64,000 bases of DNA. It comes from a virus. Shown in pieces: positions 40,322-64,000 of the stretch. Below the pieces are notes generated by a model that saw nothing but the letters and a program-made list of their open reading frames with translations, was not told the origin of the DNA and did no database searches. The translations under genes and the position numbers were made by a program. The stretch spans positions 1 through 64,000 of the IMG/VR virus record IMGVR_UViG_3300044643_000612; one strand, given 5' to 3'. How positions within the stretch are numbered: position 1 is the first letter of the stretch; every line of letters begins with the position of its first letter.

Positions 40322-40602
40322 ACGAGGTCGCCGCCGAACAGCTTGTCGGCGTCGACACGGAAGCCGAAGCCCCGGCGGTTGATGACGGAGCCCTCCGGCA
40401 CTTTCTGCCGGATGCGGTGGATCACGACCGACAGGTGGGTGTGCGACTTGCGCCAAGCGTCCATCGACGACGAGGTGTCAAGGCCGATGGCCGTGGCCAG
40501 ATGCACGTTGCTGGCGTAACCCTCGTGCTCAAGCAGGTAAGCCAGCACCAGCGCCTCCTGTGGGCCGAGGTTGAACATGTCGGCCAGTTGCGAGATGGTC
40601 AT
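40318..40602 (-). CDS. stand-alone OmpR-type winged-helix DNA-binding protein
   Basis: LSVVIHRIRQKV...VINRRGFGFRV resembles the Trans_reg_C domain. Confidence 0.6.
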   Translation of the reverse strand: MTISQLADMFNLGPQEALVLAYLLEHEGYASNVHLATAIGLDTSSSMDAWRKSHTHLSVVIHRIRQKVPEGSVINRRGFGFRVDADKLFGGDLV

Positions 40603-41039
40603 GCGATGTGCCTTCCGTCGGTCTTGAGGCGAGGGGGTTTGGACATGACGAAGGGGGTCTGCTTCGAGTAGACCACCTTCTGGTGCGCCGGGCAGTAGGA
40701 GCGGTGCCCCTCGGTGTCGGCGCAGCAGGAATAGATCCCGTCGTCCTTGACGATGGGGAAGGCGCACTCACCGAACTTGCGCTCGGTCCACAGGCTCATC
40801 GGCGAGCCCCGCACCGGCGCGACGCTGACGGGCGGCTGCACCTTGGGCGGGCGCGGGGTAGCGGGTCTCGCCGGCTTGGCACCAGGTGCCCCCGGCGCCT
40901 GACGTCGGAGGCCCATGCGGCGCAGCTTGCCGAGGACGGAGTTGCGCGTGGTGCCGAGGACCTTGCTGATCTCCGCGGCGCTCTTGCCCTCGGCCCACAG
41001 GCTTTCGAGGGTGTCGGTGTTTTTATCGGTCCAAATCAT
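40599..41039 (-). CDS. gcrA: GcrA cell-cycle regulator homologue
   Basis: WTD...LWAEGKSAAEISKVLGTTRNSVLGKLRRMGL plus C-terminal CAFP...CC...SYCPAH. Confidence 0.88.
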   Translation of the reverse strand: MIWTDKNTDTLESLWAEGKSAAEISKVLGTTRNSVLGKLRRMGLRRQAPGAPGAKPARPATPRPPKVQPPVSVAPVRGSPMSLWTERKFGECAFPIVKDDGIYSCCADTEGHRSYCPAHQKVVYSKQTPFVMSKPPRLKTDGRHIA

Positions 41040-41349
41040 GCCCGACTGTATCCCTGCTTGTTAGCTGTCCGTCAAGCGCCAATTCGATGAAGGCGTCCAC
41101 CTCCTCGCGGGAGGCGACCACCCATACCCGGAAGCCGTCGGCGCGTAGCCGGTCGCCCTCGACGACCTGGAGCGGGTGCAGTCGGCCACCCGCCCGCTTG
41201 ACCTCCACGAAGTGCAGGTTCGGCCCCGGCCACCAGACCATGCGGTCAGGGGCGCCGCGCCTGCCGATCCATTGCAGTTTGCGTTGCCGCCCACCCGTCG
41301 CCTTGACGCGAGCGATCAGGTAGGCCTCCACCTTGCCTTCGGGGGTCAC
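41023..41349 (-). CDS. VRR-NUC nuclease
   Basis: EGKVEAYL...GAPDR...FVEVKRAGGRLHPLQ. Confidence 0.88.
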   Translation of the reverse strand: MTPEGKVEAYLIARVKATGGRQRKLQWIGRRGAPDRMVWWPGPNLHFVEVKRAGGRLHPLQVVEGDRLRADGFRVWVVASREEVDAFIELALDGQLTSRDTVGHDLDR

Positions 41350-42408
41350 TCAGTCCTCCTTCTTATAGCGATATGTCTCGAACCCCGCTGCGGCAAGGGG
41401 CAGGCCGACCGACCACTGGGTGCCCTGCGACATGAGCGCGGCCAGGCCCTGCGCGCTGAACGACACGTCGTCCGCCGTCTCGCAGAGGATCTCGTCGTGG
41501 ACGTGCAGGACCGGGCTGTAGCCCGCCGCCTCCGCCGCGAGCAGGCCGGCGGCGAGGACGTCGCGAGCGACGGCCTGTGTCAGGTTCTCCACAAGTTTTC
41601 CACCGTATGTGTCCAGCCGCTCCCAGCGTCGGGTGTATTGGTTGGTGCCCATGTAGGACAGGCGCCCGTCCTCGTCGACTTGCGGTGACGGGTAGCAGAG
41701 GTAGCGGCCTGATGGCAGGCGGGCGCGCAGCCAGCCGCCGGAGCGCCGGAAGGCAATGCTGCTGGCCCGGTAGACCTCGCCCGGGTTGCTGATGGCGTTG
41801 CGGGCGGCGCGCTCGCAGTCATACCAGAACTTGACCGTCGCCTTGTGCTTCGCGCGCCAAGCCTTGACGATCTCAAGCACTTTGGGTTCGGGCAGGTTGA
41901 CGCCGTAGATCGCGCCCATAGCAGCGAACGCGCCTATACTGCCCTGAAAACCGCAAGCAAGCTCAGAAACTTTCCCGTTTACTTGCCGCTCGTCCTTGGT
42001 TACTTCACTCGGGTCCTTACCGAGGATGCCACCTGCTGTAATCTTGTAGATGTCGTGGCCTATACCTGCGTCGAAGTCTTTGAACGCCTCCAGCTTCCAC
42101 TGCTCGCCGGCAAGCCACGCTAGGACCCGCCCCTCGATGTTGGACAGGTCGGCCACGACCAGCTTGCACCCTGGCGCCGCGACGATAGACCCGCGCACCG
42201 CACTGGCGCACAACTCCATGACGTCGTCGTAGAACACCGTCTCGACGCCCGCCTTCATGGCCTCGATGCCGAGGTCGATCTGCGGCTGCTTCAGGGTCGG
42301 TCGCGGCAGATTTTGGGGCTGGAAAATGCGCCCTGAGTTGGAGACGATGCGCCCGTTCGCCATGAAACGGTTGCGCGGGCCGGCGTTCACGATGTCATAC
42401 GTCCGCAC
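41350..42408 (-). CDS. polA: DNA polymerase A, C-terminal half, preceded by a 24-aa C-intein
   Basis: GGAGG 7 nt before GTG; MRTYDIVNAGPRNRFMANGRIVSN|SGRIFQPQNLPR; motifs ADLSNIEGR, KVSELACGFQG, VHDE. Confidence 0.9.
   Translation of the reverse strand: MRTYDIVNAGPRNRFMANGRIVSNSGRIFQPQNLPRPTLKQPQIDLGIEAMKAGVETVFYDDVMELCASAVRGSIVAAPGCKLVVADLSNIEGRVLAWLAGEQWKLEAFKDFDAGIGHDIYKITAGGILGKDPSEVTKDERQVNGKVSELACGFQGSIGAFAAMGAIYGVNLPEPKVLEIVKAWRAKHKATVKFWYDCERAARNAISNPGEVYRASSIAFRRSGGWLRARLPSGRYLCYPSPQVDEDGRLSYMGTNQYTRRWERLDTYGGKLVENLTQAVARDVLAAGLLAAEAAGYSPVLHVHDEILCETADDVSFSAQGLAALMSQGTQWSVGLPLAAAGFETYRYKKED
42337..42408 (-). mobile_element. split intein C-fragment (IntC, 24 aa)
   Basis: block F YDI...NRF; block G ending SN; +1 residue Ser. 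Confidence 0.85.
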
Positions 42409-43312
42409 TGGCGAGCCTCCGCTTGGCCGCCGCAGCCGCACGGCGCTGCGCCCCAACTTCGGCGCGACGCTCCGGCGTCCAGTAGGCGATGAGCGCCTCC
42501 TTCTGGCGCCGCTTCCGCTTATCGTGGTCAATGCGCTCCCGCGCCGCGGCAAGTTGTGACTGTCGTTCGGCACGCTGCTCGTCGGGCAGTTGAGCGTTGA
42601 AAGCCACCAGGCTCTCCGAGATTTTGACGCTCACGCCCGCGACCTGTTCAGGGGTGCGTGCGTCCCACACCTTCTTTGCCCGCGCGCGGGCCGCACGCCT
42701 GGCTTTCAACTTTTCAGACGGCGTGCGCTCCGCAAAGTGTTTCAAAAGCCGTTCACTCTGCGCCTTGCGGTCCTCGTCGGTCCACGCCTTGGGGTTTACG
42801 TTTTTGCGTTCGGCTTTCAAAGCCAGCCGCAGGTTCCGACGCGCTATGCGGTACGCCTCGCGCGGGTTGGCCAACCGCCAGTCTCGGGCTAGCGCCGAGA
42901 GTTCGGCGGCGTGTGCCTGATGCGCTTCACTCTCGCGGCAGCCCCGGGAAAGCGCCGCGCGGTAGGCGGCTTCCCACGCCGGGTCGCGGCGAAGTTCTGC
43001 GGTGGCCGAAACCCCTGCGGGGCCGTCAAACGCCCCTCCAGGTGACAGGTTGTACGGGCTGACCAGCGCCGCGATCTCTTCGATCTCGGCGACAAAAGCC
43101 TCCTCAAGCGTGTCGCATGTCCGCAAGACCTCGATGGTGAACGCCTGCGCGCCGTACTTGCGGATAGCCGCACAGAATGGGTGGTGCGCGCCCTTGGCCG
43201 CGCGCCGCACATGCTGCCCCCAGCGAACCTGTAGCGGTTGAGACGTGAGACCGGCGTAGCTGCGCCCGCTAGGACTGGTCAGCCGGTAAATCGTGTAGCG
43301 TTCCCTCTCCAT
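42395..43312 (-). CDS. free-standing GIY-YIG homing endonuclease
   Basis: TIYRLTSPSGRSYAGLT...RWGQH...AIRKYG...E...YNLSPGG; basic helical C-terminus; own RBS; overlaps both intein halves. Confidence 0.88.
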   Translation of the reverse strand: MERERYTIYRLTSPSGRSYAGLTSQPLQVRWGQHVRRAAKGAHHPFCAAIRKYGAQAFTIEVLRTCDTLEEAFVAEIEEIAALVSPYNLSPGGAFDGPAGVSATAELRRDPAWEAAYRAALSRGCRESEAHQAHAAELSALARDWRLANPREAYRIARRNLRLALKAERKNVNPKAWTDEDRKAQSERLLKHFAERTPSEKLKARRAARARAKKVWDARTPEQVAGVSVKISESLVAFNAQLPDEQRAERQSQLAAARERIDHDKRKRRQKEALIAYWTPERRAEVGAQRRAAAAAKRRLASADV

Positions 43313-43566
43313 AGGGGTAGCCCTCTCTGCTTTGCCTCTCCGAGGGTAACATGTTCTGAAGTTGAAACATACACTTTATGTTCAACCGTCGCACAAACCC
43401 CGTCGTGCGTAATCACAGGCTTGTCGCCGGAAAACACCACGCCTTCGTGTCGAACCCACGACTCGCCGTCCCACACCAAGTCGTCGGTCGTGACGTCCTC
43501 TATGGGCCGCTCCAAGATGCGTCCAGTGTCGTCCTTGACCCGGACAAGTGTGCCTTCCGCCAAGCA
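43279..43566 (-). mobile_element. split intein N-fragment (IntN, 95 aa)
   Basis: block A CLAEGTLV; DLVWDG; block B TVEH; followed by TGA. Confidence 0.88.
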
Positions 43567-44511
43567 GAAACGCCCCGTGCGAGACGCCCCGGCGTACTGC
43601 ATGGTGCCCCGCAGCCGCCCGTCGGACGAGGTGCCGCGCACCAGCACCCGGTACTTGGCCGGGCTGGTCGCGGCTGCTTGCAGGCGCACCTCCAGCAACT
43701 CGCGCACATCGTCCGGCACGTCGGTCTTGAGCAGGGCGCCCAGCGTGCCCTTGCGCAGGTCTTCAATCTCAAGGCCCATCGCCTCGCGCAGGTAGCCGAT
43801 CAGGGCGTCCCGCTGCGTGGCGCTGGGCACGGCGCCGTCCGTCATGCGCGCCGACTCCACTGCTAGTCGCTGGCCCGCCTCCTTGGCGGCGCGCAGGGCG
43901 GCGTGGGCCAGGTCCATGTCGATCTGGATGCCGCGGTCGTTGATGGCTTGGTCCAGCCGCCACACGGCCTTCTCGGCGTCGGTCCAGTTGACCTTGGGCT
44001 GGCGAGCGTAGACCTCGCGCATGGCGACGATGTCCATGCGGGCATATTCCTTGAACGCCTCCCACTCCGCCGGATGCGTCTCTTTCGTGGCCCGGCGGAT
44101 CTTGCGCGTCTTGGCCTGCGGCTTGCAGAACAGTTGGATCAGCTTCTTGCCCGCCTTGTCCTTGGCCTTGTCCAGCGGGACGCCGAGGACCTCGCACTGT
44201 TTATCAAGGGCGCCCGGCAGGCTGTGCAGCAGGCCCACGGCGAGGGTGTCGTAGATGCGCTCAACGGGCACACGCACCTGACTGAACGACAGGACCGTGC
44301 GGTCGAAGTGGCTGTTGTGAATGATGATCCGGTCGGCAGCGTCGATGAGCGACTGCATCATGCCGGGGGCCGGGAACTCGACGACCTGGACCTCGTCGTC
44401 GTCCCATGCGTAGGCCAGCAGCAGGATCTCCGCGCTCTCCGCATAGGCCCATGTGCCATGCGTGATCGGCGTCTCGCTGTAGGTTTCGAGGTCGAGCATG
44501 AGTGTGCGCAT
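43279..44511 (-). CDS. polA: DNA polymerase A, N-terminal half (3'-5' exonuclease) fused to the N-intein
   Basis: LDLETYS, HNSHFDR, YARMD exonuclease motifs; DQAINDRGI; YAGASRTGRF|CLAEG. Confidence 0.9.
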   Translation of the reverse strand: MRTLMLDLETYSETPITHGTWAYAESAEILLLAYAWDDDEVQVVEFPAPGMMQSLIDAADRIIIHNSHFDRTVLSFSQVRVPVERIYDTLAVGLLHSLPGALDKQCEVLGVPLDKAKDKAGKKLIQLFCKPQAKTRKIRRATKETHPAEWEAFKEYARMDIVAMREVYARQPKVNWTDAEKAVWRLDQAINDRGIQIDMDLAHAALRAAKEAGQRLAVESARMTDGAVPSATQRDALIGYLREAMGLEIEDLRKGTLGALLKTDVPDDVRELLEVRLQAAATSPAKYRVLVRGTSSDGRLRGTMQYAGASRTGRFCLAEGTLVRVKDDTGRILERPIEDVTTDDLVWDGESWVRHEGVVFSGDKPVITHDGVCATVEHKVYVSTSEHVTLGEAKQRGLPLWRGNATRFTG

Positions 44512-44521
44512 GGCAAGGGGT

Positions 44522-44559
44522 GAGGGGCAGGACGGCAGGAGAAGGACCGCCCTGCCCCT
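44522..44559. promoter_or_regulatory. strong hairpin between gapR and polA-N
   Basis: GAGGGGCAGG...CCTGCCCCTC inverted repeat. Confidence 0.5.
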
Positions 44560-44568
44560 CTGGCTTCG

Positions 44569-44829
44569 CTAGATCAGATCAGCGCAGCCAAGCGCGTTGG
44601 CGTAGAGTTCGAGCATGGCCCGCTCCTCCATCGCCTTGTCGCGGTCCTTCTTGCGAAGGGCCACGATCTTGCGGAGGGTCTTGGTGTCGAAGCCGTTGCC
44701 TTTGGCCTCGGCGTAGACCTCCTTGATGCCCGCGGCGACCTCGCTCTTTTCCTCTTCAAGACGCTCAACGCGCTCGATGATGGATTGGAGTTGGCTCGCC
44801 GCGACGGAGTTGTGACCCAGGTCCGACAT
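44569..44829 (-). CDS. gapR: GapR (DUF2312) nucleoid-associated protein homologue
   Basis: [16 protein letters not shown]...[26 protein letters not shown]...LELY. Confidence 0.92.
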
Positions 44830-45383
44830 CAGACGAAGTCCTCCTCGTCGTCCGCGTCGAACTCGTCAGCCGAAGCTGCCGTCGACCCGCCGAAGCCCTC
44901 GCCGTCAGCGTAGAACTTCACGCCGCGAAGCACGGCGTTGATGCGCCGGCCCCACTTCGGGCTGTCGTAGGCGTAGATCTCGACGCTGGCGTGGACGTAG
45001 CAGCCAGCGTAGATGACCCCGTCGGCTTCCGTGACCGGCTGGCCCTGACGGTCCAGAGCGGTCGGGCGCAGCTTCTCGGAGCGGGTGGACAGGAAGAAGT
45101 TGCCCTCGAAGCCGTCCCACGTGTCGCCGTCCTTGGTCGTGTACGGCCCTTCGACCCATGCCGACCGCTGGTCAGCCTTGAGTTTCTTGACGATGTCGTC
45201 CGCCTTCGGACCCCACTTCTCCTTGGCCGACGCTGAGATGGCCTCGCGGATCGCCGCCACGTTGGGGGAGGCGGGGTCGATGATCAGCTTGGCGCCGTAG
45301 GCGGGGTTGTTGTCGCCGAAGGCTTGGGCCTTGAAGACCGCCGGGAAGGCCAGGCGGACGTTACGCAGTTGCAGAATGGTCAT
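44829..45383 (-). CDS. ssDNA-binding protein (DUF2815-like)
   Basis: NVRLAFP...IYAGCYV...LRGVKF..DGEGFGG with an acidic tail. Confidence 0.85.
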
Positions 45384-61846: not shown

Positions 61847-62138
61847 GAAGAAGGTTAAGGCCCGGGTGGAGGCCATGCTCAAGGCGAAGGGGGTTTACTA
61901 TTTCTTCCCGGCTACGCATGGTTACGGGCGGAGCGGAGTCCCTGACATCATCGCCTGCGACCGGGGACGGTTCCTCGCCATAGAGTGCAAGGCTGCGGGG
62001 GGTAAGCTTACGGCGCTACAGGAGCGGGAGATTACCCGTATTAGAGTAGAAGGCGGCGTGGCACTCGTCATCCACGAAGACAACTTCCACGAGTTAGAGC
62101 AAGCGTTAGAGCAAGCGCTGGAGTATACATGCCTTTAA
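61830..62138 (+). CDS. VRR-NUC nuclease (second copy)
   Basis: TPEKKVK...GRSGVPDIIAC..GRFLAIECKA...LTALQ. Confidence 0.88.
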   Translation: MAATPEKKVKARVEAMLKAKGVYYFFPATHGYGRSGVPDIIACDRGRFLAIECKAAGGKLTALQEREITRIRVEGGVALVIHEDNFHELEQALEQALEYTCL

Positions 62139-64000
62139 TTGTCTGCGATTTCGAAACATATTACGACTCCGACTTCAGCCTGTCTAAGATGACGACGGAG
62201 GAATACATCCGAAGTCCTCGGTTTGAGGTGATCGGCGTAAGTGTAAAGGTGGATAGCGAGCCGCCCCGGTGGTTCTCCGGTACCATGCCTGACATTCAGA
62301 AGTGGCTCCTGCGCTTCCCGTGGGAAACCTCCATCGCCGTGGCGCACAACGCTGCCTTCGACATGGCCATCCTGAACTGGAGTTTTGGCATTATCCCGGC
62401 GAGGATCGCGGACACGCTCTCTATGGCTAGGGCGATAGACGGACCGGATGCAGGCAACAGCCTCGCCAAGCTGGCAGAGCGCCACGGTCTCGGGGCCAAG
62501 GGCAACGAGGTTATCAACGCGCTAGGCAAACGCCGACTGGATTTCTCCACGGCACAGCTGGCGGCTTACGGCGAGTACTGCTGCAACGACGCCGACCTGA
62601 CCTACGACCTGTTCCAGAAGCAAGTGGCGGGCTTCCCGCTAAGCGAGCTCCGGGTGATCGACCTAACCATACGCATGTTCACCGAGCCGGTACTGCGACT
62701 GAGCCAACCGGTGTTGGACGGCCACCTCACTGAGGTGCTGGACCGCAAGGCGAAACTTCTCGATGGGTTAGGCGTCTCCACCGAAGCCCTTATGAGCAAC
62801 GACAAGCTGGCTAAGGTCCTTGCAGACCTAGGTGTGGAGCCCCCGACTAAGACCAGCCCCACCACGGGCAAAGTGGCTTGGGCCTTCGCTAAGAACGACG
62901 AGGGGTTTAAGGCCCTACTGGAACATGAGGACGAGCGCGTCCAAGCCATTGTGGCTGCGCGGCTAGGGATCAAGTCCACGTTGGAGGAGACCCGGACCGA
63001 GCGGTTCATCGACATCTCCAAGCGCGGGACCCTGCCCGTACCCCTACGCTACTACGCAGCTCACACGGGGCGCTGGGGTGGCGACGACAAGATCAACCTC
63101 CAGAACCTGCCGCGCAAATCCCCACTCAAGAAATCCATGCGCGCGCCCAAGGGGTTCCTGTTGGTGGACTGCGACTCCAGCCAGATTGAAGCGCGGACCC
63201 TAGCTTGGCTGGCCGGACAAGACGACCTTGTCCAGTTCTTCGAGAAGAACAACGCCGAGATCGCGGCGGGCGTTGCCAAGGCGGACATGCAGTTCGACCC
63301 CTACAAGATCATGGCCTCCGGCATCTACGGGGTACCTGTGTCGGAGGTGACGGACGACATGCGCTTCGTAGGCAAGACAACTATACTGGGTTGTATTGCC
63401 GAGGGAACCCCGGTACTAACTGATCGCGGCTGGGTAGCGATTGAGGAGGTAACTACCTCTGACCGGCTGTGGGACGGAGAGGAGTGGGTATGCCACCAAG
63501 GGCTAGTGCAGAAAGGCACCAAAGAAACGTTGAGTCTTTGCGGGCTTTGGTTGACGCCGGATCACAAAGTGTTGTGCGGGACCCAGTGGCTGCAAGCGCA
63601 CTCAGTGGTTCAAGACAGAAATACCCTCTCCCAAGCGTTGGATACAGGAGCGGTCAGCTGGTTGTGTCCGGATACGTCAAAGGGCCAAGGAGAGGGGTAC
63701 TATCCATCATCGTGCGGTGCGACTGCGGGTTCCCAGAATACACCGTTGATAGGCACAACTTCAAGGACTTCAAAAGCACCCGATGCCCCCTCTGCGGTAG
63801 ACGGGAAGGACACCGAAAACGTTATTGGAAGTATATATCGGCGCTCCCCGACACTGCGCACCGAGAGCGACTGCTCAACCGACTATCGGCTGCTATCAGC
63901 CGCTGCCACGCACCCAATAACCGGATGTACGCAGACTACGGAGGTAGGGGTATCGCAGTATACAAACAGTGGAGAGCTGACCGCGCCGAGTTCCTACGGT
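62129..64000 (+). CDS. polA: DNA polymerase A (second, intein-containing, truncated by the window end)
   Basis: CDFETYY, AHNAAFD, YCCND, AHTGRWGG...NLQNLPR, CDSSQIEAR, GKTTILG; no stop before the window end. Confidence 0.9.
   Translation, partial: MPLIVCDFETYYDSDFSLSKMTTEEYIRSPRFEVIGVSVKVDSEPPRWFSGTMPDIQKWLLRFPWETSIAVAHNAAFDMAILNWSFGIIPARIADTLSMARAIDGPDAGNSLAKLAERHGLGAKGNEVINALGKRRLDFSTAQLAAYGEYCCNDADLTYDLFQKQVAGFPLSELRVIDLTIRMFTEPVLRLSQPVLDGHLTEVLDRKAKLLDGLGVSTEALMSNDKLAKVLADLGVEPPTKTSPTTGKVAWAFAKNDEGFKALLEHEDERVQAIVAARLGIKSTLEETRTERFIDISKRGTLPVPLRYYAAHTGRWGGDDKINLQNLPRKSPLKKSMRAPKGFLLVDCDSSQIEARTLAWLAGQDDLVQFFEKNNAEIAAGVAKADMQFDPYKIMASGIYGVPVSEVTDDMRFVGKTTILGCIAEGTPVLTDRGWVAIEEVTTSDRLWDGEEWVCHQGLVQKGTKETLSLCGLWLTPDHKVLCGTQWLQAHSVVQDRNTLSQALDTGAVSWLCPDTSKGQGEGYYPSSCGATAGSQNTPLIGTTSRTSKAPDAPSAVDGKDTENVIGSIYRRSPTLRTESDCSTDYRLLSAAATHPITGCTQTTEVGVSQYTNSGELTAPSSYG
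63392..64000 (+). mobile_element. class 1 intein in PolA motif B (partial)
   Basis: GKTTILG|CIAEGTPVLTDRGWVAIEEV...RLWDG...LTPDHKVL. Confidence 0.88.
63586..64000 (+). CDS. HNH-type homing endonuclease overprinted out of frame in the intein (partial)
   Basis: GQLVV...VRCDCG...STRCPLC...SRCHAPNNRMYADYGGRGIAVYKQW...EF; start GTG 63586 or ATG 63490. Confidence 0.75.
   Translation, partial: MAASALSGSRQKYPLPSVGYRSGQLVVSGYVKGPRRGVLSIIVRCDCGFPEYTVDRHNFKDFKSTRCPLCGRREGHRKRYWKYISALPDTAHRERLLNRLSAAISRCHAPNNRMYADYGGRGIAVYKQWRADRAEFLR

Follow-up and report, generated by a model that had tools for sequence, protein, structure and literature searches.

The locus described here raises the question of how a phage can obtain a continuous DNA polymerase from a gene that is broken inside one of its conserved motifs and carries an endonuclease gene in the gap. 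The window, that is, the whole 64,000-nucleotide stretch of viral DNA analyzed (IMG/VR record IMGVR_UViG_3300044643_000612, positions 1 to 64,000), contains at this locus three overlapping open reading frames on one strand (Table 1), and all coordinates and features given for the split polymerase in the original prediction were recovered. Genes 1 and 2 are in the same frame and are separated by exactly eight stop codons; about eight had been predicted, along with the conclusion that this is not a cis intein, and the two intein halves are expected to lie on two separate polypeptides. The GIY-YIG open reading frame indeed overlaps both halves in another frame, sharing 34 nt with gene 1 and 14 nt with gene 2, and gene 2 has its own GGAGG and GTG ahead of a short C-intein, as had been proposed. 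Within IntN, a conserved core extends to ...LPLWRG, and the tail thereafter is not conserved.

Table 1. Features of the split family A DNA polymerase locus (positions in the window)
Feature	Position	Strand	Description
Gene 1	44511..43279	-	410 aa, 315-aa N-extein plus 95-aa IntN; stop codon 43281-43279
N-extein	43567..44511	-	315 aa; part of a phage family A DNA polymerase (3'-5' exonuclease plus the stretch leading to the TGR motif); C-terminal end YAGASRTGRF
IntN	43282..43566	-	95 aa; Cys1 (CLAEG...) at 43566-43564, block B TVEH
GIY-YIG ORF, free-standing	42395..43312	-	305 aa; frame differs from genes 1 and 2
Gene 2	42408..41350	-	GTG start at 42408
Shine-Dalgarno-like GGAGG	42416..42420	-	7-nt spacer to the GTG of gene 2
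IntC	42337..42408	-	24 aa, start-RTYDIVNAGPRNRFMANGRIVSN; blocks F and G only, ends IVSN with the terminal Asn
C-extein	41350..42336	-	328 aa plus stop; Ser+1 first (SGRIFQPQNLPR); polymerase palm and fingers motifs
Whole mobile cassette (IntN, GIY-YIG gene, IntC)	42337..43566	-	1230 nt

The two exteins belong to one polymerase. N-extein residues 1-315 match the DNA polymerase family phrog_17 (E 6.4e-43) and are 54% identical to the polymerase of Caulobacter phage GB2A, and the C-extein matches both Pfam DNA_pol_A (PF00476; E 1.2e-11) and phrog_17 (E 4.6e-63). The two phrog_17 matches occupy consecutive profile positions, 670-975 and then 976-1232; a Pfam exonuclease match to gene 1 reached only E 0.097, short of the cutoff. 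In an alignment with Caulobacter phage GB2A gp056 and APSE-2 P45, both of which are uninterrupted at the insertion site (GB2A reads ...RTSRF-SGKVFQPQNLPRPTLKQ), joining the exteins restores the PolA motif, as had been predicted. The polymerase is thus broken inside the conserved TGR...QNLP motif and not between domains. The insertion is precise and in frame, and its removal restores the conserved host sequence, which is evident both from this alignment and from a cassette-free allele in other metagenomes: contigs of a 90-95% similar polymerase from runs X23 and X24 skip from 42324 to 43571, which is exactly the letter count required by an intein-less gene. A second, distantly related PolA of 902 aa is encoded in the same phage genome from 62129 onwards. 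Because of this second enzyme, the split polymerase need not be essential.

The inserted halves have the hallmarks of an intein. Judged from the alignments, the residues of class-1 splicing (Cys1, block-B Thr and His, terminal Asn and Ser+1) are conserved: 33 aligned N-halves have an invariant Cys1 and an invariant block-B His, and their block-B Thr is at least 90% conserved (TVEH in the window), the C-terminal end of IntC is ...SN or ...HN in 44 of 44 sequences (43 loci and the window, where ...IVSN is followed by Ser), and the related loci listed have Ser or Cys at +1. The halves are also oppositely charged, with a net charge of -5 for IntN and +3 for IntC in the window; among 33 cassettes, every IntN carries a net negative charge and 32 of the IntC sequences a net positive one. 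A HINT fold is predicted for a contiguous homologue, the 139-aa intein of locus L045, whose IntN and IntC parts are 54% and 83% identical to the halves in the window. The AF2 model of this homologue, and not of the two chains of the window, has a pLDDT of 88.2 and a pTM of 0.82, and the PDB matches listed for it by Foldseek are inteins or other HINT-superfamily domains (bacterial intein-like, Vint), headed by Npu DnaE (4kl5, E 4e-4), gp41-1 and Ssp DnaB with a best TM of about 0.6. The original prediction had proposed intein HMMs as a check; no intein model matched IntN or gene 1 in Pfam at E<=0.1 or in NCBIfam at E<=1, and phmmer found no match of IntN to PDB sequences. A match to a curated model is a sensitivity check rather than a defining feature of inteins. 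Since neither curated intein models nor PDB sequences were matched, the identification rests on the motifs, on the fold of the homologue and on a marginal match (E 0.01) of a profile of the intein family to Npu DnaE among PDB sequences.

The explanation that we regard as highly probable is that a selfish cassette, inserted in frame right after the TGR motif, breaks the gene of a phage family A polymerase into PolA-N plus IntN, a GIY-YIG homing endonuclease, and IntC plus PolA-C, with the halves trans-splicing and the endonuclease driving homing. The earlier reading as a split intein with a free-standing GIY-YIG gene is thereby supported, by the precise insertion, the conserved residues and IntC start, the HINT fold of the homologue, the complementary charges, the lack of a recognisable intron RNA and the agreement of independent assemblies. 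Most likely the two polymerase pieces are stitched together by protein trans-splicing. The acidic IntN and the basic IntC would associate and fold as one HINT domain, Cys1 would form a thioester that is attacked by Ser+1, the terminal Asn would cyclise, and an O-N shift would yield a normal peptide bond, the outcome being an intact polymerase that reads ...TGRF-SGRIF... across the junction. When phages co-infect a cell, the endonuclease would cleave polymerase alleles that lack the cassette, close to where it inserts, and the whole cassette plus some downstream flank would be copied in during repair.

Alternatively, the intein halves might serve merely as a dimerisation module of a non-covalent two-subunit polymerase, with no peptide bond being formed. 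The available text of Dassa and colleagues (PMC2677866) records genes split by endonucleases whose products assemble without splicing, for example the fragmented NrdA of phage Aeh1, and according to the available part of Czernecki 2023 PolA is split into exonuclease and polymerase pieces without an intein in some T7-like phages; in addition, the intein is unusually small and one DnaE-type strand is missing. The break within a conserved motif rather than between domains is nevertheless difficult to reconcile with two subunits, and all residues that are needed only for splicing chemistry are conserved in about 40 diverged cassettes. Moreover, contiguous mini-inteins occupy the same site in five relatives (L043, L045, P0099, P0105 and P0106) and must splice for a working enzyme to result. 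We thus consider the non-covalent assembly improbable.

The related loci show that the split is real and under selection. The polymerase is split at the same site in 43 of 97 of them, a recurrence far beyond chance, and the IntN stop and IntC start are conserved in these 43 loci; 93 of 102 homologous protein clusters consist of N-halves whose end lies 88-131 aa after Cys1. The arrangement is widespread, being found in phages of Alphaproteobacteria, Bacillota and other groups. Decay of the split polymerase to a non-functional gene, with replication left to the second PolA, would be consistent with the presence of that enzyme, with a premature stop at IntN residue 49 in one relative (L017) and with GIY-YIG frames that are broken or shortened in four others (L016, L040, L055 and L070). 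All three open reading frames of the window are intact, however, start codons and Shine-Dalgarno-like sites are conserved, and dozens of loci keep the architecture together with intact exteins that have diverged to 30-40% identity, which requires purifying selection. Decay is therefore even less probable than a non-covalent enzyme. The relatives include empty sites, contiguous mini-inteins, split genes with an endonuclease, in-frame fusions of IntN and endonuclease, split genes with a decayed endonuclease and split genes without one. IntN continues in frame into the GIY-YIG frame in two relatives (L049 and P0091), six loci retain both the IntN stop and the IntC start and have no intervening gene, and several have a shortened or replaced endonuclease gene, so not every copy of the cassette is intact.

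The intervening gene encodes a predicted I-TevI-like catalytic domain (approximately residues 1-95) followed by a C-terminal part, about 210 aa long, that is predicted to be all-helical. The protein matches Pfam PF01541 (E 4.5e-5, 24.1 bits against a cutoff of 22.6) and the homing endonuclease family phrog_314 (1.6e-12); the best NCBIfam match, TIGR01453 ('group I intron endonuclease', 9.9e-8), is below cutoff. The AF2 model (pLDDT 89.8) finds its best PDB match in the I-TevI catalytic domain 1mk0 (TM 0.77 on target, rmsd 2.1 A), and the matches to 1mk0 and 1ln0, both of this domain, range from TM 0.69 to 0.77 on target at rmsd 2.1-2.9 A. Residues Y9, Y19, G21, R30, H34, E76 and N88 are invariant in 23 homologues. 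The modelled I-TevI-like fold thus carries the conserved catalytic residues; presumably the Tyr, Tyr, Arg, Glu and Asn have the catalytic roles of their counterparts in I-TevI. Residues 95-305, approximately, are predicted with high confidence to be all-helical, with no Pfam match and no structural match in the PDB.

Comparison of loci points to horizontal movement of the cassette. Locus L034 and the window differ considerably in their polymerases (54% and 63% extein identity), whereas their IntN, GIY-YIG and IntC proteins are 99%, 91% and 96% identical; at the nucleotide level the cassette is 90-100% identical and the flanking polymerase DNA about 60%. The 5' edge of identity is sharp at Cys1, and on the other side identity decays over about 200 nt into the C-extein, a gradient resembling co-conversion of the flank. 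The pattern is the reverse in another locus (L033), and the polymerase closest to that of the window has a divergent cassette. In 25 loci with an N-extein at most 43% identical to that of the window, IntN is 49-65% and IntC 58-92% identical. A cassette that is near-identical in a polymerase of about 60% identity and divergent in the closest polymerase indicates that it moves horizontally, with cleavage by the endonuclease as the probable means.

GIY-YIG genes are typical of phage group I introns, and the insert might thus be removed at the RNA level and a contiguous mRNA translated. The best NCBIfam match of the endonuclease, albeit below cutoff, would fit this, as would the X23 and X24 contigs, which join across the insert and come from two libraries labelled RNA-Seq. 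An Rfam scan of positions 41000-45000 at E<=10 found no intron family, however, and 11 related loci (141.7 kb in total) gave no gathering-level Rfam match. Because the three reading frames overlap, there is no non-coding room for a ribozyme core, and the insert begins and ends exactly where the intein does at the protein level. The contigs that join across it are about 5% divergent from the window and use other codons at the junction, which identifies them as another allele and not a spliced copy; X24 is marked as probably DNA, and the RNA label of X23 is only a guess. In addition, the six loci without an intervening gene keep the IntN stop and IntC start. RNA splicing is hence very improbable. 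Assembly or sequencing errors in a contiguous intein with an in-frame endonuclease domain, which the original prediction had named as a possible source of the stops, are conceivable for a metagenome assembly with relatives in which IntN runs into the GIY-YIG frame, but have a negligible probability, as contigs from runs X3 and X5 of other studies cover all three junctions with 0 differences across 43162-43955 and 41983-42712, and the relative frames of the three open reading frames vary among loci while stop and start positions are conserved.

By its sequence, the locus conforms to the 'fractured genes' defined by Dassa, London, Stoddard, Schueler-Furman and Pietrokovski in 2009 (PMC2677866), with gp41-1, NrdJ-1 and IMPDH-1 as examples. 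The available text of that paper describes two adjoining host-gene pieces on the same strand that end and begin with split-intein halves, a free-standing homing endonuclease gene (GIY-YIG or Vsr-like) between them with overlapping coding frames, an origin in phage-like environmental DNA, hosts acting on DNA or nucleotides, and oppositely charged intein halves. The hosts it names are gp41, IMPDH, DnaE, NrdA, NrdJ, DNA ligase and terminase, in contrast to the family A polymerase found here. The original prediction of a candidate new split-intein pair thus stands in part: the PolA host and the short IntC are new, while the arrangement itself is already contained in that work and a penultimate Ser is not unusual.

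Among other known systems, the split intein of Npu DnaE is the best structural match of the L045 model and the best match of the family profile; it is likewise of class 1, with Cys1 and a ...SN C-terminus, and also splits a replicative polymerase. Its +1 residue is Cys, that of the window Ser. The genes of cyanobacterial DnaE are far apart and without an endonuclease, according to the available text of PMC2677866. The polymerases of APSE-1 and APSE-2 (P45) and of Caulobacter phages GB2A, RW, RLK and KcrB belong to the same polymerase family (46-54% identity) and contain inteins of the same family, with VWDG..WV.H in the N part and GPRNRF...N in the C part. These inteins are located at another site, however, after ...YGGK and before CEN..., with the site of the window uninterrupted, and each is contiguous, having about 250 aa of in-frame sequence at its centre in place of a separate GIY-YIG gene; the APSE polymerase intein is mentioned in the available part of bioRxiv 10.1101/2020.03.17.996009. 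AceL-TerL and GOS-TerL are likewise natural metagenomic split inteins with one very short half, which in their case is IntN, of 25-37 aa in the available text of PMC11766414, and not IntC; unlike their atypical split, that of the window is at the usual position of endonuclease insertion. The exonuclease/polymerase split of PolA in T7-like S-SBP1 (Czernecki 2023) and the nrdA of Aeh1 split by mobE (PMC2677866) also divide a phage replication gene in two, and in one of the two cases an endonuclease gene separates the parts, but according to these sources the pieces lack intein halves, are separated between domains and assemble non-covalently.

The IntC of fractured-gene inteins (gp41-1, NrdJ-1, IMPDH-1) comprises about 35-40 aa, compared with 24 aa in the window. 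The difference from DnaE noted in the original prediction is real: IntC of Npu DnaE has 13 additional residues, between the positions of LW.G and YDI in our family, which form its first strand ahead of the YDI strand and which the intein family of the window lacks. The penultimate Ser, put forward as a further distinguishing mark, has to be dismissed as such because the Npu DnaE intein chain likewise ends in ...ASN. We know of no characterised intein that works without the opening strand of a DnaE-type IntC. The short form is a consistent property of the family: a start codon (ATG, GTG or TTG) is located exactly 24 codons before the +1 residue in 33 of 40 distinct cassettes and one to three codons further upstream in six more, the start is ATG in the near-identical L034 cassette and GTG in the window, and purine-rich stretches are found in related loci at the place of the GGAGG.

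Although the fractured-gene arrangement itself is not new, the family A polymerase host and the short IntC are. If spliced as proposed, the product of this locus would extend the set of proteins known to be assembled in nature by trans-splicing to a family A DNA polymerase. More tentatively, and with slightly less than an even chance of being right in our estimate, the PolA cassette may carry a split intein smaller than any other natural one so far (112-133 aa in total, its IntC being devoid of the DnaE-type first strand) and be a currently active composite mobile element, in which a splicing domain and a separate GIY-YIG gene home together and whose relatives keep every stage of the life cycle. 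In that case, it would provide a natural C-intein of peptide size. At 24 aa, the IntC can be made by chemical synthesis and, if active, could serve protein semisynthesis and labelling. The related loci provide alleles with and without the cassette, diverged hosts that share a near-identical cassette, and forms in which the endonuclease is fused or absent, making the proposed route from a contiguous intein to a broken gene directly testable, and such a series of life-cycle stages would represent a natural test of the gene-breaking model.

The family A DNA polymerase (PolA) gene of this phage is broken into three overlapping ORFs between positions 44511 and 41350 on the minus strand, and the layout given in the original prediction was recovered exactly with respect to ORF coordinates, overlaps and the eight stop codons in between. 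The middle ORF shares 34 nt with gene 1 and 14 nt with gene 2, and genes 1 and 2 share a single frame in which these eight stops separate them. The product of gene 2 consists of its start residue, followed by RTYDIVNAGPRNRFMANGRIVSN and then SGRIFQPQNLPR... In Pfam, gene 2 matches DNA_pol_A (E 1.2e-11) and the middle ORF matches GIY-YIG (E 4.5e-5, barely over the gathering score), and the two polymerase pieces occupy consecutive positions of the PHROGs family phrog_17 (670-975 and 976-1232).

Features of the split polymerase locus, and gaps of three related loci that hold other ORFs
Feature	Position	Strand	Description
Gene 1	44511-43279	-	410 aa ORF; polymerase N-part ending ...YAGASRTGRF, then N-intein (IntN)
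IntN Cys1	43566	-	followed by 94 further residues (CLAEG..., block B TVEH, ...LPLWRGNATRFTG) and a stop
Middle ORF, GIY-YIG	43312-42395	-	305 aa; frame unlike its neighbours'
GGAGG of gene 2	42420-42416	-
Gene 2 start codon, GTG	42408	-	7 nt past GGAGG
Gap of locus L012	6990-8479		253-aa minus-strand ORF
Gap of locus L015	6978-8092		267-aa plus-strand ORF
Gap of locus L062	2212-2954		138-aa ORF

The split is conserved and not an error. Logan contigs from two lake-water runs of other studies (X3, X5) show no difference to the window across Cys1, across the IntN stop and endonuclease start, or across the endonuclease stop, the start of the C-intein (IntC) and the first C-extein residue (+1), which argues against the assembly errors considered in the original prediction. 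Residues 296-410 of gene 1, used as query, retrieved 102 homologous protein clusters, of which 93 are N-halves ending 88-131 aa past Cys1; one is contiguous, two have longer tails and six lack this intein by the pattern used. The collection of homologous loci that had been proposed comprised 97 loci (30 from genomes, 67 from viral contigs), a set that over-represents intein carriers because intein motifs served to choose it; 43 of them are split at this site.

State of the polymerase site among the 97 related loci
State	Loci
Split, halves separated by a GIY-YIG ORF of 250 aa or more (in one locus an in-frame fusion with IntN)	27
Split, GIY-YIG ORF shortened or broken	4
Split, gap without match to the GIY pattern used	6
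Split, no gene between halves	6
Contiguous intein at site	2
IntN alone (end of contig; in one case a different context)	6
IntC alone	2
Site uninterrupted	23
Site not located	21

Among the six gaps missed by the GIY pattern, two hold GIY-YIG by eye (L051, L064), one has a GIY-YIG ORF (L065), and the remaining three contain other ORFs instead of the usual gene. Hosts in the genome records include Ruminococcus, Lawsonibacter, Blautia, Fretibacterium, Moraxellaceae, Roseicyclus and an alphaproteobacterium. In 40 distinct cassettes (IntN, endonuclease gene and IntC), the codon 24 positions before +1 is ATG in 27, GTG in three and TTG in three, while the start lies one to three codons upstream in six and 12 codons upstream in one; at several loci an in-frame stop follows merely 1-8 codons further up. 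Purine-rich, Shine-Dalgarno-like stretches precede the IntC start, and the endonuclease stop abuts or overlaps it, which suggests translational coupling of the two. The relative frames of the three ORFs vary among loci. IntN (88-109 aa) is net negative in all 33 cassettes counted and IntC net positive in 32 of them; this count excludes L017, L049, duplicate cassettes and five repeats of the L050 type. At locus L017 (1163-2377) the IntN frame stops early at residue 49 in an otherwise complete cassette, which means that either this copy is dead or its MAG contig contains a sequencing error.

The intein models of Pfam and NCBIfam matched neither gene 1, gene 2, IntN alone nor a contiguous homologue, so that the search of both halves against intein HMMs suggested by the original prediction brought no match in these two collections; a phmmer search of IntN against PDB sequences yielded nothing usable either. 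Because the curated models gave no match, identity was judged by motifs, a family profile and fold. An alignment of 33 N-halves shows no variation at Cys1 or the block-B His and at least 90% conservation of the Thr, and Asn ends every IntC sequence examined, followed by Ser or, rarely, Cys. Contiguous mini-inteins are found at exactly this site in L043 (135 aa), L045 (139 aa) and the homologous proteins P0099, P0105 and P0106. The L045 intein, with which the halves of the window share 54% (IntN) and 83% (IntC) identity, was folded with a 46-row alignment of contiguous relatives and separate IntN and IntC rows, including those of the window. The model has a mean pLDDT of 88.2, with low confidence confined to the linker between N- and C-part, and the Foldseek matches listed from the PDB are inteins or further members of the HINT superfamily, with Npu DnaE, gp41-1 and Ssp DnaB at the top (TM ~0.5-0.66). 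The family sequence profile finds Npu DnaE at E 0.01.

In the profile alignment, the Npu DnaE chain has 13 extra residues, its first C-intein strand, between the LW.G and YDI positions of the family. The IntC is indeed shorter than that of DnaE, as had been proposed, and since this strand is absent the 24-aa IntC comprises blocks F and G only; the split lies in the variable linker, the usual seat of endonuclease domains. The penultimate Ser, also singled out originally, is no special feature, for the DnaE chain likewise ends ...ASN. We considered the IntN tail (...NATRFTG) as a source of the missing strand and rejected this, because tails past LW.G range from 0 to ~20 residues and are unconserved, and because the linker of the contiguous homologue is predicted to be unstructured, with low confidence. 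The very short IntC and the small predicted total intein size (112-133 aa) are among the features of interest. We know of no natural IntC as short as 24 aa that has been characterized. Pertinent passages of a review (PMC11766414) describe none, and natural atypical split inteins have there a short IntN, not a short IntC.

In the GIY-YIG protein Y9, Y19, G21, T23, R30, H34, E76 and N88 are invariant among 23 homologues. Its AF2 model (pLDDT 89.8) shows an N-terminal beta-beta-alpha-alpha-beta-alpha unit, whose top PDB matches are the I-TevI catalytic domain (1mk0, 1ln0; TM 0.69-0.77 on target) and then UvrC GIY-YIG domains, and ~210 helical residues without a Foldseek match, which we assume to be a putative DNA-binding part. 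A fully in-frame intein with a GIY-YIG domain was sought among 114 matches to longer homologues and not found: two have an intein at this site, both mini-inteins (127 and 134 aa), and the other 112 have inteins of the same family at other sites. The only IntN-GIY-YIG fusions seen are L049 and P0091. In L049 (4949-6171) IntN reads in frame into GIY-YIG, 387 aa from Cys1 to the stop, with a separate IntC start; such fusions could mark an intermediate on the way to, or from, an intein that contains GIY-YIG in frame. At L050, L052, L053, L054, L056 and L063, all from one metagenome, the intein is split with no gene between the halves (~7086-7433 in L050), and the IntN stop overlaps the IntC start as TAATG. 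Together with the shortened endonuclease genes, these six loci show that the broken state outlasts decay of the endonuclease, and this is difficult to account for without working trans-splicing or, at the least, working assembly.

Judging from its patterns of identity, the cassette clearly moves, and has been transferred recently. Between L034 and the window the exteins share 54% and 63% protein identity, whereas IntN, GIY-YIG and IntC share 99%, 91% and 96%; at the nucleotide level the flanks are ~60% and the cassette 90-100% identical. The 5' boundary, at Cys1, is sharp; at the opposite end identity falls off gradually, over some 200 nt of the C-extein, a pattern that resembles co-conversion. 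For L033 the relation is reversed (exteins 80-85%, cassette 45-70% identical nucleotides), and among the 25 loci with no more than 43% N-extein identity to the window, IntN still reaches 49-65% and IntC 58-92%.

Contigs from two wastewater runs (X23, X24), whose polymerase is 90-95% similar to that of the window, skip from 42324 to 43571 and carry 16 other letters there, that is, one base and five codons, as an intein-less gene needs. We read these contigs as a cassette-free allele of a close relative; their depth is ~70-150, compared with ~6-23 for cassette-like pieces in the same runs. RNA splicing as the source of these junctions was rejected: although both runs bear an RNA-Seq label, their annotation makes X24 probably DNA and RNA in X23 a guess, and on reading by hand the codons at the junction are not those of the window. 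Neither the labels nor the parts of the cassette that lack cover in these two runs were taken to say anything on expression. An Rfam scan revealed no intron RNA at 41000-45000 of the window or in 11 related loci.

The nearest annotated phage polymerases, those of Caulobacter phages GB2A/RW/RLK/KcrB (54% identity) and Hamiltonella phages APSE (46%), bear on the motif which joining of the exteins had been predicted to restore: GB2A (...RTSRF-SGKVFQPQNLPRPTLKQ) and APSE-2 are uninterrupted there, and by this comparison the break is an insertion into a conserved polymerase motif. The GB2A-type and APSE polymerases instead carry a contiguous intein after ...YGGK, where the window polymerase has no insert. 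As this intein is clearly related in sequence to IntN and IntC of the window, one intein family occupies several sites of the polymerase family. P0105 (1020 aa), P0106 (908 aa) and P0089 (676 aa) have two or three contiguous mini-inteins of this family at differing sites (after TGR., after KGK..(E/T)L. and after ...VEN), P0105 three at three sites.

The phage also encodes a second, distantly related family A polymerase of 902 aa (window 62129-64000, plus strand, on to ~64837; L101 277-2985; DNA_pol_A E 2.7e-25). Inserted into it at another site (...GKTTILG|C ... IVHN|CGYG) is a contiguous intein of the same family with a low-complexity in-frame middle, and a 254-aa ORF in another frame of this intein (L101 1617-2381) matches HNH endonuclease families (phrog_374, E 5.6e-28). 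An endonuclease encoded out of frame within an intein, as predicted here, has been described for actinophages (bioRxiv 10.1101/2025.01.02.630785). The replication module around the split polymerase includes DUF2800/PD-(D/E)XK, an Enc34-type ssDNA-binding protein and a VRR-NUC nuclease. Genes at 40599-41039 and 44569-44829 (both minus strand) encode a homologue of the cell-cycle regulator GcrA (PF07750, E 2.7e-15) and a GapR-like DNA-binding protein (PF10073, E 2.9e-31). GcrA and GapR are typical of Alphaproteobacteria, which hints at an alphaproteobacterial host.

The finding is well supported, with anatomy, conservation, folds, alleles and transfer signature all shown, and the split-intein reading of the original prediction was essentially right. 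We propose that the three coupled ORFs are expressed, that the acidic IntN would associate with the basic IntC, and that class-1 splicing via Cys1 and Ser+1, with Asn cyclisation, would produce a 643-aa polymerase, while the GIY-YIG enzyme may cut empty alleles in mixed infections and so bring about homing. The arrangement corresponds to the 'fractured gene' of Dassa et al. 2009 (PMC2677866), in whose pertinent sections split inteins, an intervening GIY-YIG or Vsr-like gene and overlapping frames are described for gp41, IMPDH, DnaE, NrdA, NrdJ, ligase and terminase; these named hosts do not include a family A polymerase. No publication describing a split intein within such a polymerase turned up in our literature search, although supplementary lists might hold one. 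The PolA reclassification (Czernecki 2023) does not use the word 'intein', Novikova 2016 speaks of inteins, though of no split ones, in bacterial DNA polymerase I, and a contiguous intein of the APSE polymerase is on record in a preprint (bioRxiv 10.1101/2020.03.17.996009). The interest of the locus lies also in a new host protein for a split intein, in the clear signs of recent transfer and in an unusually complete set of evolutionary stages.
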